The translations under genes were made by a program, and so were the position numbers. Below the pieces are notes generated by a model. That model searched no databases. It was not told where the DNA came from and saw only the letters and a program-made list of their open reading frames with translations. This document shows, piece after piece, positions 44,950 to 50,472 of a stretch of 64,000 nucleotides of DNA. Position 1 is the stretch's first letter. Each line of letters opens with the position of its first letter. The DNA comes from Escherichia coli. GTDB lineage: Bacteria > Pseudomonadota > Gammaproteobacteria > Enterobacterales > Enterobacteriaceae. The stretch lies in NCBI RefSeq assembly GCF_017348835.2, contig NZ_CP071375.1; one strand, given 5' to 3'.

Positions 44950-46302
44950 ATGACTAAACACTATGATTACATCGCCATCGGCGGCGGCAGCGGCGGTATC
45001 GCCTCCATCAACCGCGCGGCTATGTACGGCCAGAAATGCGCGCTGATTGAAGCCAAAGAGCTGGGCGGCACCTGCGTGAATGTTGGCTGCGTGCCGAAAA
45101 AAGTGATGTGGCACGCGGCGCAAATCCGTGAAGCGATCCATATGTACGGCCCGGATTATGGTTTTGATACCACTATCAATAAATTCAACTGGGAAACGTT
45201 GATCGCCAGCCGTACCGCCTATATCGACCGTATTCATACTTCCTATGAAAACGTGCTCGGTAAAAATAACGTTGATGTAATCAAAGGCTTTGCCCGCTTC
45301 GTTGATGCCAAAACGCTGGAGGTAAACGGCGAAACCATCACGGCCGATCATATTCTGATCGCCACAGGCGGTCGCCCGAGCCACCCGGATATTCCGGGCG
45401 TGGAATACGGTATTGATTCCGATGGTTTCTTTGCCCTTCCTGCTTTGCCAGAGCGCGTGGCGGTTGTTGGTGCGGGTTACATCGCCGTTGAACTGGCGGG
45501 CGTGATTAACGGCCTCGGCGCGAAAACGCATCTGTTTGTGCGTAAACATGCGCCGCTGCGCAGCTTCGACCCGATGATCTCTGAAACGCTGGTCGAAGTG
45601 ATGAACGCCGAAGGCCCGCAGTTGCACACCAACGCCATCCCGAAAGCGGTAGTGAAAAATGCCGATGGTAGCCTGACGCTGGAGCTGGAAGATGGTCGCG
45701 GTGAAACGGTGGATTGCCTGATTTGGGCGATTGGTCGCGAGCCTGCCAATGACAACATCAACCTCGAAGCCGCTGGCGTTAAAACCAACGAAAAAGGCTA
45801 TATCGTCGTCGATAAATATCAAAACACCAACGTTGAAGGTATTTACGCAGTGGGTGATAACACGGGTGCAGTGGAACTGACACCGGTAGCAGTTGCAGCG
45901 GGTCGCCGTCTCTCTGAACGCCTGTTTAATAACAAGCCGGATGAGCATCTGGATTACAGCAACATTCCGACCGTGGTCTTCAGCCATCCGCCGATTGGTA
46001 CTGTTGGTTTAACGGAACCGCAGGCGCGCGAGCAGTACGGCGACGATCAGGTGAAAGTGTATAAATCCTCTTTCACCGCGATGTATACCGCCGTCACCAC
46101 TCACCGCCAGCCGTGCCGCATGAAGCTGGTATGCGTTGGACCGGAAGAGAAGATTGTCGGTATTCACGGCATTGGCTTTGGTATGGACGAAATGTTGCAG
46201 GGCTTCGCGGTGGCGCTGAAGATGGGTGCAACCAAAAAAGACTTCGACAATACCGTCGCCATTCACCCAACGGCGGCAGAAGAGTTCGTGACAATGCGTT
46301 AA
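44950..46302 (+). CDS. gor: Glutathione reductase Gor, 450 aa
   Basis: 450-aa ORF with FAD motif GGGSGG and redox-active [13 protein letters not shown]. Confidence 0.95.
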
Positions 46303-46678: not shown

Positions 46679-47771
46679 GTGTAAGTTCACAGAGATATTG
46701 CAATTGCCTCCGGATAAGTAAGGGGAGATTGCACTATGCAAATGCAGCATCTGATGGTTGGCTATCCTAAGTACTACCAAACGGCCGATTATGCGTTGAG
46801 GCTTTCAGTGATGGCTGATATAGCAACAATGAGAATGAAGGCTCTGCACTTCTGGGATAAACACGGTATTTCTGCAGCTTCTGAAGCCTTTGGCGTGTCC
46901 TGCCGCACGCTTTACTGGTGGCGTCAGTTACTGAACAAGGAAGGACCTGAGGGGCTAATCCCGCACAGTAAGGCACCTCTGGTGCGACGAAAAAAACACT
47001 GGCATCCCGATGTGCTGAAAGAGATTCGACGCCTCAGGACAGAGCTGCCGAACCTCGGTAAAGAGCAGATTTTTGTTCGCCTGAAGCCCTGGTGCGAACA
47101 GCGCTATCTGGCCTGTCCGAGTGTTTCCACCATCGGCAGAATGATCGCTGCCGCACATGATAAAATGCGGATGATACCTGTGCGTCTGGGATCGCGGGGG
47201 AAGGCACTGCTTGTCAAAAAGCGGTCTGCCAAACCCCGCAGGCCAAAGCACTACCGCCCGGTAAAGACAGGTGAGCTCATTGGGATGGACGCCATTGAGC
47301 TCAGAATGGGCGAACTGCGTCGCTATGTCATCACCATGATCGACGAATGCAGCAATTACGCGCTGGCGCTGGCTGTGCCGTCACTCAACAGTGATATCGT
47401 CAATCACTTCTTCAGCCGCGCAGCCCGGTTGTTCCCGGTCGGTATCAGCCAGATAATCACAGATAACGGAAAAGAGTTCCTGGGAAACTTCGACAAAACG
47501 CTGCAGGAAGCCGCTATCAAACACCTCTGGACCTATCCCTACACGCCAAAAATGAACGCTATCTGTGAACGTTTTAACCGGACGTTAAGAGAGCAGTTTA
47601 TTGAATTTAATGAGATTTTACTCTTTGAAGATCTGGCGCTATTTAACCAGAAGCTGGCGGAATATCTGGTGCTGTATAACAGCAAAAGACCCCACAAGGC
47701 GCTCGCACTAATGACGCCCGTGGAATATATTTTAAAAGAGAATAAAAATTGCAATATGTGGTGGACCCATA
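46679..47771 (+). mobile_element. IS481-family insertion sequence (~1.09 kb) with imperfect terminal inverted repeats and 8-bp target-site duplication CATGTCCT
   Basis: CATGTCCT at 46671-46678 and 47772-47779; termini GTGTAAGTTCACAGAGATATTGCAATT and AATTGCAATATGTGGTGGACCCATA are inverted; single rve/DDE transposase fills the element; boundaries uncertain by ~10 bp. Confidence 0.7.
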
Positions 47772-47818
47772 CATGTCCTTGCAATAGTTTCAGTATGGTA
47801 TTAGCATTGATGCGTTAG
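46736..47818 (+). CDS. IS481-family DDE (rve) transposase, 360 aa; last ~15 codons are read from the target duplication and flanking DNA
   Basis: 360-aa ORF with N-terminal HTH region and integrase core (ITDNGKEF, YTPKMNAICERFNRTL); stop codon lies 47 bp beyond the inferred right end. Confidence 0.8.
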   Translation: MQMQHLMVGYPKYYQTADYALRLSVMADIATMRMKALHFWDKHGISAASEAFGVSCRTLYWWRQLLNKEGPEGLIPHSKAPLVRRKKHWHPDVLKEIRRLRTELPNLGKEQIFVRLKPWCEQRYLACPSVSTIGRMIAAAHDKMRMIPVRLGSRGKALLVKKRSAKPRRPKHYRPVKTGELIGMDAIELRMGELRRYVITMIDECSNYALALAVPSLNSDIVNHFFSRAARLFPVGISQIITDNGKEFLGNFDKTLQEAAIKHLWTYPYTPKMNAICERFNRTLREQFIEFNEILLFEDLALFNQKLAEYLVLYNSKRPHKALALMTPVEYILKENKNCNMWWTHTCPCNSFSMVLALMR

Positions 47819-47897
47819 ATGATGGCATTCTCACTCCAGCCAGAGCCACCAACTCTGGGCTGCAAAGTAAAAAACCGACGCAAAGTCGGTTTTTTTA
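47815..47897 (+). ncRNA. agrA: agrA-like small antisense RNA of the dinQ locus (approximate ends)
   Basis: TTGCAA-N17-TAGCAT promoter-like pair, CTCACTCCAGCCAGAGCC segment matching the dinQ leader, terminator hairpin ACCGACGCAAAGTCGGT plus T7. Confidence 0.5.
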
Positions 47898-48044
47898 CAT
47901 CCGGATTCGGACAAGGCTTAATATGACGATGACCCAGTGAAAGTATATAAATCGTCACTGCGATATATACCGAAGTGCCCCCTCCGCCAGCTGAAGAAAT
48001 CGCTAATTCTTGCAATGTTAGCCACTGGCTAATAGTATTGAGCT

Positions 48045-48127
48045 GTTAGATAAGAGCTCTCTCACTCCAGCCAGAGCCACCAACTCAGGGCTGGAAAGTA
48101 AAAAACCGACGCAAAGTCGGTTTTTTT
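48045..48127 (+). ncRNA. agrB: agrB-like small antisense RNA, second copy (approximate ends)
   Basis: Near-identical second copy with TTGCAA-N17-TAGTAT promoter-like pair and the same terminator. Confidence 0.5.
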
Positions 48128-48159
48128 ACGTCCTGATTCAGACCTCCTTTCAAATGAAT

Positions 48160-48240
48160 AGCCAACTCAAAATTCACACCTATTACCTTCCTCTGCACCT
48201 ACGCATTCGTTAAACCATATATGTTTTTGACTTATCCGCT
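48160..48240 (+). promoter_or_regulatory. Probable ars operon promoter/operator remnant, now directly upstream of a short arsB tail and arsC
   Basis: Sequence with TTGACT at 48227-48232 where arsR would be expected; no arsR or arsB ORF follows; identity with the K-12 ars promoter is from memory and unverified. Confidence 0.3.
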
Positions 48241-48241
48241 T

Positions 48242-48292
48242 TGGTTTGTAACGCTGGCTGCGCTGGCGCTACGTCTCTCTTTCACTTTGTAA
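48242..48292 (+). pseudogene. Possible 3'-terminal remnant of arsB (16 codons, WFVTLAALALRLSFTL*)
   Basis: Short hydrophobic frame ending 12 bp before arsC ATG, the position where arsB normally ends; no upstream arsB body. Confidence 0.3.
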
Positions 48293-48304
48293 TGAGATAC
48301 TGAT

Positions 48305-48730
48305 ATGAGCAACATTACCATTTATCACAACCCAGCCTGCGGCACATCGCGTAATACGCTGGAGATGATCCGCAACAGCGGTACAGAACCGACCATTATC
48401 CATTATCTGGAAACACCACCAACGCGCGATGAACTGGTAAAACTCATTGCCGATATGGGGATTACCGTACGCGCGCTGCTGCGTAAAAACGTCGAGCCGT
48501 ATGAGGAACTGGGCCTTGCGGAAGATAAATTTACTGACGAGCGGTTAATCGACTTTATGCTTCAGCACCCGATTCTGATTAACCGTCCGATTGTGGTGAC
48601 GCCGCTGGGAACTCGCCTATGCCGCCCCTCGGAAGTGGTGCTGGAAATTCTGCCAGATGCGCAAAAAGGCGCGTTCTCCAAGGAAGATGGCGAGAAAGTG
48701 GTTGATGAAGCGGGTAAGCGGTTGAAATAA
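48305..48730 (+). CDS. arsC: Arsenate reductase ArsC (glutaredoxin-dependent), 141 aa
   Basis: 141-aa ORF MSNITIYHNPACGTSRNTLEMIRNSG with catalytic Cys12. Confidence 0.95.
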   Translation: MSNITIYHNPACGTSRNTLEMIRNSGTEPTIIHYLETPPTRDELVKLIADMGITVRALLRKNVEPYEELGLAEDKFTDERLIDFMLQHPILINRPIVVTPLGTRLCRPSEVVLEILPDAQKGAFSKEDGEKVVDEAGKRLK

Positions 48731-48779
48731 AGCGGCTATATCCCCCCCACAGGTTGTTAGAAAAGTGCGCTTTATTTAT

Positions 48780-48879
48780 GTCGGATGCGACGCTGGCGCG
48801 TCTTATCCGACCTACAAGGTTATGAAAATTCGATGAATTGTATGTTATTTGTAGGCCTGACAGGCGTAGCGCATCAGGC
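48780..48879. repeat. Pair of REP elements downstream of arsC
   Basis: GTCGGATGCGACGCTGGCGCGTCTTATCCGACCTAC and GTAGGCCTGACAGGCGTAGCGCATCAGGC. Confidence 0.7.
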
Positions 48880-49356
48880 GATTTTGCTATTTACACATTA
48901 CTCCCTGCGTGAGATTCCAATTATCGCGTCCAGCATGGTGTATCAGTGATCTGCTTAGTGATCAGCGATACAGTGCAGCAGTTTAAAGACGTACTGGATT
49001 ATGATTTATCAGTGCTTTACACAACAAATTATTCAATAATTATAAGATACCTTAACCCATTTTATTATTACACATCTAAAACATCACAAAAATATCATTT
49101 CACACACTATCGGAGAACATCATAACTTTTTAAAATGAGCGCTTTTTGATAGTTGTTAACGTTTTCTTTTACGATACTATCAATGCCCTTTTTTATACAC
49201 AAATATTACCGGGTGGAGATAAAAGGGAAGTCAAAGGTAATTATATCAGGAAGATATGACGCATGATATTTATTGTGCGTAGAAGAAAATCCATTCCTGC
49301 TCTAATTATCCAATTTAAAAATCTTAGCATAAAACAGATAATGAATAAGGAATGTT

Positions 49357-50472
49357 ATGTCAATTGACTTTACCCCAGGTGTGATAAATACATATCACGG
49401 CGATATTTATAACCGCACAACAGATACCGACAATGTTAAAACACCAGACACACCGATGTGGCCTTGTGATAATCGGGAAGAACAACAACCCATTAATTCC
49501 ACATTCTCTGGAGAAGGATACAACCCTGAACAATATGATTTAGCGCGGCAACACCTCCCACAAATTTATGCGTGCCGCACGAACACCAAATATACAGATG
49601 CAGACTACTCAAAAGTTGTGGCTCAACTTGTAAGTCTTATTACTAACATTGAATCGATAAGTTCGACACCACTTACGCGGCAGGCACAGGAAATACTTAA
49701 TCAAATTAATAACATTAGATACGAAAAGAACAAAAGTGCTGAATGTCGAATCATTGTTGTCGCTAATCCTAAACCCGACAAGGCAATCATAACTAAAATT
49801 AGCGTAGAAGAGGGAATACCAGTAAGATTCAGTGTCCAAACCATGTTTTCAGATACTAATTTTATTGCTGAACAACGAGCTGACTTACCGACTAATATAA
49901 AAGATATTCAAATCCTGTATCAAAAAATGACGAAGTTATATATTGAACACAGTGAAAATAAAAACAGGATGAAAGTCTTTGCCGGAACCAACTTTATTGA
50001 TTTCAATATGACAGGACAGAACCTGTCCGGGTTCGTTCTAACTTTGTCAAGGTTTTATTTCGAAGATCTACTTAATATAAATTTCACTGACGCAAATTTA
50101 GGTGACACTATTTTTTCACATAAAGAACACCCTACCCCCAAATTATATAAAGACGAACAATATCTTGACAAACAAATCGAAGGTTTATTTTCAACATTAT
50201 TAACCATTAATGACAACTTTTTACGAGCAAAAGCGGAAATTGCTTCGACAATAATTAAATTCTTAGAGGCCAGGATAACCAATCTTTCATACAATGACAT
50301 ATTAAAATATCAGCAAGAATTCCAAAAACAATGTTATAAGCAAGTTAAAGCCTTTACGACACTCTCCCGATACAATAAAATTCAAACATGGGCAGAAATG
50401 TCTGAATATCAATTCGAAGTATTTCAATACGAGACGCTTAACCCAAAAAAATGTCACGTACGCCTTATTTAA
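49357..50472 (+). CDS. yhiS: YhiS-like uncharacterised protein, 371 aa, intact; AT-rich gene
   Basis: 371-aa ORF at the arsC-slp position; Asn/Ile/Lys-rich, a few pentapeptide-repeat-like segments ([11 protein letters not shown]). Confidence 0.6.

Follow-up and report, generated by a model that had tools for sequence, protein, structure and literature searches.

An arsC-only locus of Escherichia coli and the deletion junction that splits its ars promoter

Introduction

How does an arsenate reductase gene come to stand without the repressor and the efflux pump of its operon, and from what promoter could it still be expressed? The question is raised by a chromosomal locus of Escherichia coli within a 64,000-nucleotide stretch of contig NZ_CP071375.1 (assembly GCF_017348835.2; the whole stretch is referred to here as the window, and positions are counted from its first letter), in which arsC is present and both arsR and arsB are missing.

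The arsC-only locus is already known for its gene content and phenotype, and is an ordinary lineage polymorphism. According to Sütterlin et al. 2018 (PMC5923176), the deletion is widespread and long known in E. coli rather than private to one strain; in B2 isolates arsC is all that separates gor from slp as far as ars genes go, phylogroup E isolates share their gene order with either B1 or B2, and the absence of arsR and arsB reflects loss, not their gain elsewhere; the paper also asks why arsC has persisted. It further reports sodium arsenite MICs below 128 mg/l for isolates without arsRB and above that value for isolates with arsRBC or arsRDABC, and in another study (PMC9731454) As(III) MICs were lowest for ST131 isolates without arsR and arsB.

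Here we report the exact deletion junction, its position inside the ars promoter, its identity between B2 and non-B2 strains, and its presence in a rare pig-associated lineage. We propose, with a probability of about 0.9 for the explanation as a whole, consequences included, that the locus is the chromosomal E. coli arsRBC operon after one old illegitimate deletion.

Results

An intact arsC follows a 1,686-bp deletion

The gene order in the window is prlC-rlmJ-gor-dinQ-agr-arsC-yhiS-slp-dctR-chuS-chuA, with arsC as the sole ars gene between gor/dinQ and yhiS/slp, the layout of the published arsC-only allele and also of Nissle 1917. The arsC gene (48305..48730, + strand) encodes a glutaredoxin-dependent arsenate reductase of 141 codons and is intact, as predicted from the start: its product matches NCBIfam NF007456 at 304.9 bits (cutoff 242) over residues 1-141 of 141, and TIGR00014 at 137 bits (cutoff 106). 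All of Cys12, Arg60, Arg94 and Arg107 are kept, residues whose roles as the catalytic cysteine and the arginine triad are established for R773 ArsC.

Alignment with K-12 MG1655 reveals the absence of 1,686 bp (NC_000913.3 3648490-3650175), replaced by the dinucleotide TG, in agreement with the loss of ~1.7 kb holding arsR and arsB that had been anticipated. The segment lost relative to K-12 comprises 38 nt of the promoter/leader, arsR, the arsR-arsB spacer and arsB codons 1-414. To its left, window positions 47772-48241 are 97.4% identical to the K-12 agrA-agrB-Pars region (L001 4021-4490), the match stopping at ...TTGACTTATCCGCTT; to its right, positions 48244-48800 are 96.2% identical to the last 49 nt of K-12 arsB together with arsC. 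The resemblance to the K-12 ars promoter, which the original prediction had offered tentatively, is borne out by these values, and homology with the ars promoter and arsB sets the region apart from unrelated intergenic DNA.

The TG at the junction (48242..48243, + strand) matches neither K-12 flank and constitutes a filler of unassignable origin. It is followed by the arsB 3' remnant (48244..48292, + strand), consisting of one nucleotide of codon 414, codons 415-429 (FVTLAALALRLSFTL, the residues in which K-12 ArsB ends) and the stop codon. A frame of 16 codons read across the junction (48242-48292, TGG TTT GTA ... TTG TAA) translates as WFVTLAALALRLSFTL before its stop and had been taken for the extreme 3' end of arsB; this holds for 15 of its codons, while the leading W codon is a product of the junction. 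No microhomology between the K-12 breakpoints is present in the alignment, and no repeat is found there either.

These remnants bear on the direction of change. The converse history, in which arsC alone is the ancestral state and arsRB was gained by insertion in other lineages, draws on nothing beyond the gene content itself and has in our view a negligible probability: an in-frame 15-codon arsB end and an operator and -35 hexamer without arsR make sense only as remnants, and the arsRBC and rMLST trees of the published work agree, arguing for loss (PMC5923176).

Surroundings of the locus

Upstream of the remnant lies the agrB small RNA with its terminator (48046..48129, + strand; Rfam RF02891 AgrB, 108.1 bits, E 1.5e-19), which aligns to K-12 agrB; since agrB ends at 48129, the ars remnant starts directly after the agrB terminator. 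Two matches to the Rfam AgrB family are present in the window (47815-47898 and 48046-48129), as in K-12, O145 and A30, and a single agr repeat is apparently present in Nissle 1917, 33F4 and ETEC6335, to judge from spacing and alignment coverage.

Further upstream, an IS481-family element of 1,093 bp (46679-47771; ORF 46736..47818, scoring 221 bits against transpos_IS481, below the cutoff of 224) is flanked by a target duplication of ~8 bp, CATGTCCT. Its transposase frame has no internal stop within the element and ends 47 nt into the flank. Its site is the region of the divergent dinQ and agrA promoters: a LexA-box-like sequence, CTGGATAATCATACAG, is ~25-30 bp away, and the 5' end equivalent to that of agrA follows 36 bp downstream. 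The insertion might affect the SOS regulation of the DinQ toxin or agrA expression.

Directly 3' of arsC, REP-like palindromic repeats occupy 48740-48880, with a sub-threshold Rfam match to naRNA4 at 48779-48811 (31.1 bits vs a gathering score of 59.5). The yhiS-like ORF (49357-50472, 371 aa) is uninterrupted in the window and without an NCBIfam family match; in K-12, by contrast, IS5 interrupts yhiS, which is a pseudogene there, and the yhiS-like copy in strain PE164 is flagged as frameshifted by RefSeq.

The junction separates the ars -35 hexamer from the native -10

What survives of the ars promoter region is its left part (48131..48241, + strand), homologous to K-12 up to ...CCGCTT. It contains the ArsR operator (ABS) TTAAACCATATATGTTTTTGACTT at 48210..48233 (+ strand), which overlaps the -35 hexamer TTGACT (48227-48232), the same hexamer that had originally been singled out within promoter-like sequence. 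The published R773 ABS, TTAAATCATATGCGTTTTTGGTT, is the counterpart of this operator (PMC7606416), and the ABS is located upstream of the promoter (PMC3918153). The operator is identical to that of the intact O157:H7, EC31 and LR-28 operons; decay of the operator after the loss of arsR, considered on account of an AAACC variant, was rejected, the variant being shared by these same three intact operons.

Sigma-70 -10 elements are located 16-18 nt after the -35, and the left breakpoint falls only 9 nt downstream of TTGACT. All five intact operons read GACACT 17 nt after the -35, a hexamer which we take, from this 17-bp spacing, to be the putative native ars -10; a literature search returned no publication giving the native ars -10 or start site. 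As the breakpoint lies between the -35 and the -10, the native -10, the start site and the arsR ribosome-binding site are, by geometry, deleted. The fusion of the ars promoter to the arsB tail that had been envisaged is confirmed at the junction, but it involves only the operator/-35 half of the promoter, everything from 9 nt past the -35 being gone.

A candidate replacement can be read in the sequence to the right of the junction. The arsB tail donates a putative extended -10 type element, TGT-AACGCT (48247..48255, + strand), at a distance of 17 bp from the retained -35. The stretch is conserved as TGTAACGCT or TGTAACTCT across all the deletion alleles, which show no variation in the -35, in the 17-bp spacing or in the TGT-AAC motif, and AACGCT itself matches the -10 consensus at only 2 of 6 positions. 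A consensus promoter/terminator scan reports nothing here, and the same scan also misses the native K-12 ars promoter. Segment-wise divergence among the deletion alleles offers too few sites to show constraint on such a hybrid promoter, and the putative arsC leader RNA folds no better than shuffled sequence (z = 0.42). We infer that arsC may be transcribed constitutively from a hybrid promoter composed of the retained TTGACT, the 17-bp spacer and the TGT-AACGCT of the arsB tail. Such transcription would escape arsenic control, possibly with some read-through from agrB, and translation would proceed from the ribosome-binding site of arsC itself.

One junction is shared by all eight deletion alleles examined

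Eight deletion alleles were read across the junction, namely those of the window (identical to PE164), Nissle 1917 and Z0117EC0054 (both Nissle-type), O145:H28 RM9872, A30, DSM 103246, 33F4 and ETEC6335. All eight have the same CCGCTT-TG-GTTTGTAAC junction, TG filler included, and all eight share a G-to-A change at 48250 that occurs in none of five intact operons. These five operons all read ...CCGCTTCGAAGAGAGACACT... and ...GCTGTTTGTGAC... at the corresponding sites. The identical breakpoints and 2-nt filler, together with the absence of a repeat or microhomology, indicate that all carriers inherited one and the same illegitimate deletion, a single and probably old event that spread afterwards.

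A 200-nt query centred on the junction matched as one contiguous stretch in 1,111 of the 5,426 complete genomes of E. coli, about a fifth, which counters a chance arrangement; in the same census, K-12 arsRB was present at a coverage of at least 80% in 4,122 genomes. The junction query from Nissle 1917 returned 1,043 records at an identity of at least 99% and 24 at 95-99%. Some 94% of carriers have the Nissle (phylogroup B2) allele type, and the other types, found in O145:H28 and other backgrounds, account for 44-68 genomes. The deletion allele is close to fixation in the Nissle-type lineage (phylogroup B2) and occurs at low frequency in other backgrounds. A scan of one genome per bacterial species yielded no exact match to the junction in other species.

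The window and Nissle alleles differ at ~12% of non-coding positions, close to the synonymous divergence of gor (dS 0.12), so that the deletion allele may be about as old as the split of B2 from the rest of the species. This comparison also bears on an independent origin of the deletion in the window lineage at a recurrent hotspot, as opposed to inheritance or acquisition of the B2-type allele. Near the junction, the window flanks do resemble intact operons (96-98% identity) more than they resemble the Nissle allele (~90%), as such an origin would have it; yet 90% identity fits neutral divergence between B2 and non-B2, the breakpoints, filler and G-to-A change are common to all alleles, and there is neither repeat nor microhomology to drive recurrence. 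We regard a second origin as very improbable, and the junction of the window as that of the B2 strains, identical by descent.

The window derives from a rare non-B2 lineage

Over 6.4 kb of upstream housekeeping DNA, an identity of at least 99% was found only with PE164, a pig isolate from China, and F2_81, also a pig isolate; both are 100% identical to the window, and the next genome is at 98.3%. The window gor is 97.2% identical to that of Nissle, while between two Nissle-type (B2) strains the identity of this gene is 99.9%, from which it follows that the window strain is not B2. Among phylogroup typing markers, chuA alone falls within the window. On these sequence comparisons the host is a rare, chuA-positive pig lineage and clearly not B2. 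The IS481-family insertion is common to PE164 and F2_81 only. The 41.7-kb IncFII-type plasmid pPE164 bears espT, a gene for a type III effector, along with an EspF-repeat fragment, which suggests that the host lineage may belong to the attaching-effacing E. coli.

At 48210-48304 the window allele shows no difference from the alleles of 33F4 and ETEC6335, but identity with the arsC of these strains drops to 94.8% and 96.2%, respectively. More generally, arsC alleles from deletion strains are scattered among those from intact strains and fail to group in a single clade. We read this as an allele that has apparently been moved and reshuffled by homologous recombination, and recombination of the flanks is the most likely route by which it would have reached the window lineage. 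As a separate observation, the mean dS of arsC in the same strains is 0.17 vs 0.094 for gor (44950-46302), about twice the synonymous diversity, and arsC alleles follow neither strain background nor deletion status, suggesting frequent recombination at the locus.

arsC is constrained in deletion alleles

Purifying selection acts on arsC, with a dN/dS of ~0.08 (mean 0.084; 0.03-0.10 when the window allele is compared with others, 0.05-0.17 when deletion alleles are compared among themselves), although the mosaicism of the gene means that recombination with intact operons could explain part of this apparent constraint. In all eight deletion alleles arsC is full length with its catalytic residues intact.

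The main rival to continued expression holds that arsC is a silent relic whose sole promoter was destroyed with the -10 and start site, and which is preserved because too little time has elapsed or because it is renewed through recombination with intact operons. The deleted native -10, the promoter scan and the mosaic distribution of arsC alleles between deletion and intact strains would all be compatible with this. What it has to accommodate is the age of the allele, with flanks ~12% different between the window and Nissle, along with the intact and constrained arsC of all eight alleles and the invariance of the -35, spacing and TGT-AAC motif. That the gene has survived so long, intact and constrained, speaks against silence, an argument weakened by the exchange with intact operons, and we consider the silent relic unlikely overall. 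Expression data on arsC in B2 strains were not found in the literature.

No arsRB is found elsewhere in PE164 and F2_81

In the window, arsR is deleted and arsB, the gene of the arsenite/antimonite antiporter, is represented by codons 415-429 only; tblastn with K-12 ArsR and ArsB against all 64 kb returned the arsB tail and no ArsR homologue. With PE164 and F2_81 standing in for the genome behind the window, we searched with a chimeric query made of 2 kb of window DNA and K-12 arsRB. In megablast, PE164 and F2_81 ranked first, each with a single place vs two in intact genomes, and blastn with a word size of 11 gave two places vs three, the extra place common to all genomes being taken as a paralogue of the housekeeping part of the query. 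Neither does pPE164, the sole plasmid of PE164, carry any ars gene. PE164 and F2_81 are without arsRB elsewhere, as far as searches blind to unrelated pump families can tell. The original prediction of an arsenate reductase left without its pump or repressor, which an arsRB copy elsewhere in the genome would have overturned, holds for the window and for these two 100% matches.

A divergent ars system elsewhere, such as arsRDABC or an Acr3 pump, might still compensate and retain arsenic resistance: some E. coli (ST69) carry arsRDABC, and the window covers just 64 kb. Set against the consistent shortfall of one place in both searches and the plasmid devoid of ars genes, such compensation seems highly unlikely, an unrelated pump family being of a kind that these searches could not detect.

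Discussion

The most economical course of events would begin with a non-homologous deletion from 9 nt past the ars -35 hexamer to arsB codon 414, leaving a 2-nt filler. The resulting allele would have persisted as a presence/absence polymorphism, crossing phylogroups by recombination. ArsC would still reduce arsenate by means of glutathione and glutaredoxin, and the arsenite so formed would have no exit through ArsB. We predict that the window strain, like the B2 strains, tolerates arsenite poorly.

A more specific account joins these steps to the fate of arsC. A single deletion about as old as the B2 split, spread by recombination, would by chance have rebuilt a working, repressor-free promoter, with the old -35 and an extended -10 in the arsB tail 17 bp apart as in the native promoter, and constitutive arsC would have been retained through selection for a role independent of the ArsB pump. 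Taken together, this combination is tentative, with the odds against it. Why arsC survives alone, under purifying selection and in about one fifth of E. coli, is a question already raised by Sütterlin et al. A promoter-splitting junction common to B2, O145:H28 and rarer lineages makes the question of expression easily testable, and the locus is usable as a simple lineage marker.

The locus can be set against three known systems. With the arsRDABC operon of R773 it shares a homologous ArsR operator and an ArsC of the same glutaredoxin-coupled family, and it differs in being chromosomal rather than plasmid-borne and in lacking arsR, arsD, arsA and arsB. It occupies the same site as K-12 arsRBC (b3501-b3503), to which the operator/-35 region is 96-97% and the arsB tail with arsC 96.2% identical, but is without the 1,686 bp that hold the -10, the start site, arsR and arsB codons 1-414. 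The closest counterpart is the B2 arsC-only locus (Antimicrob Agents Chemother 62:e00209-18), of which the relevant parts of PMC5923176 describe the gene content and not the junction. Unlike that locus, the window belongs to a non-B2 host, its flanks are ~90% identical to the B2 allele, and it has two agr repeats, compared with one in Nissle, and the upstream IS481-family element. The gor-dinQ-agr-arsC-yhiS-slp-dctR-chuS order is nevertheless the same, arsR and arsB are gone and arsC is kept in both, and the junction agrees base for base with Nissle 1917 and a second B2-type strain.
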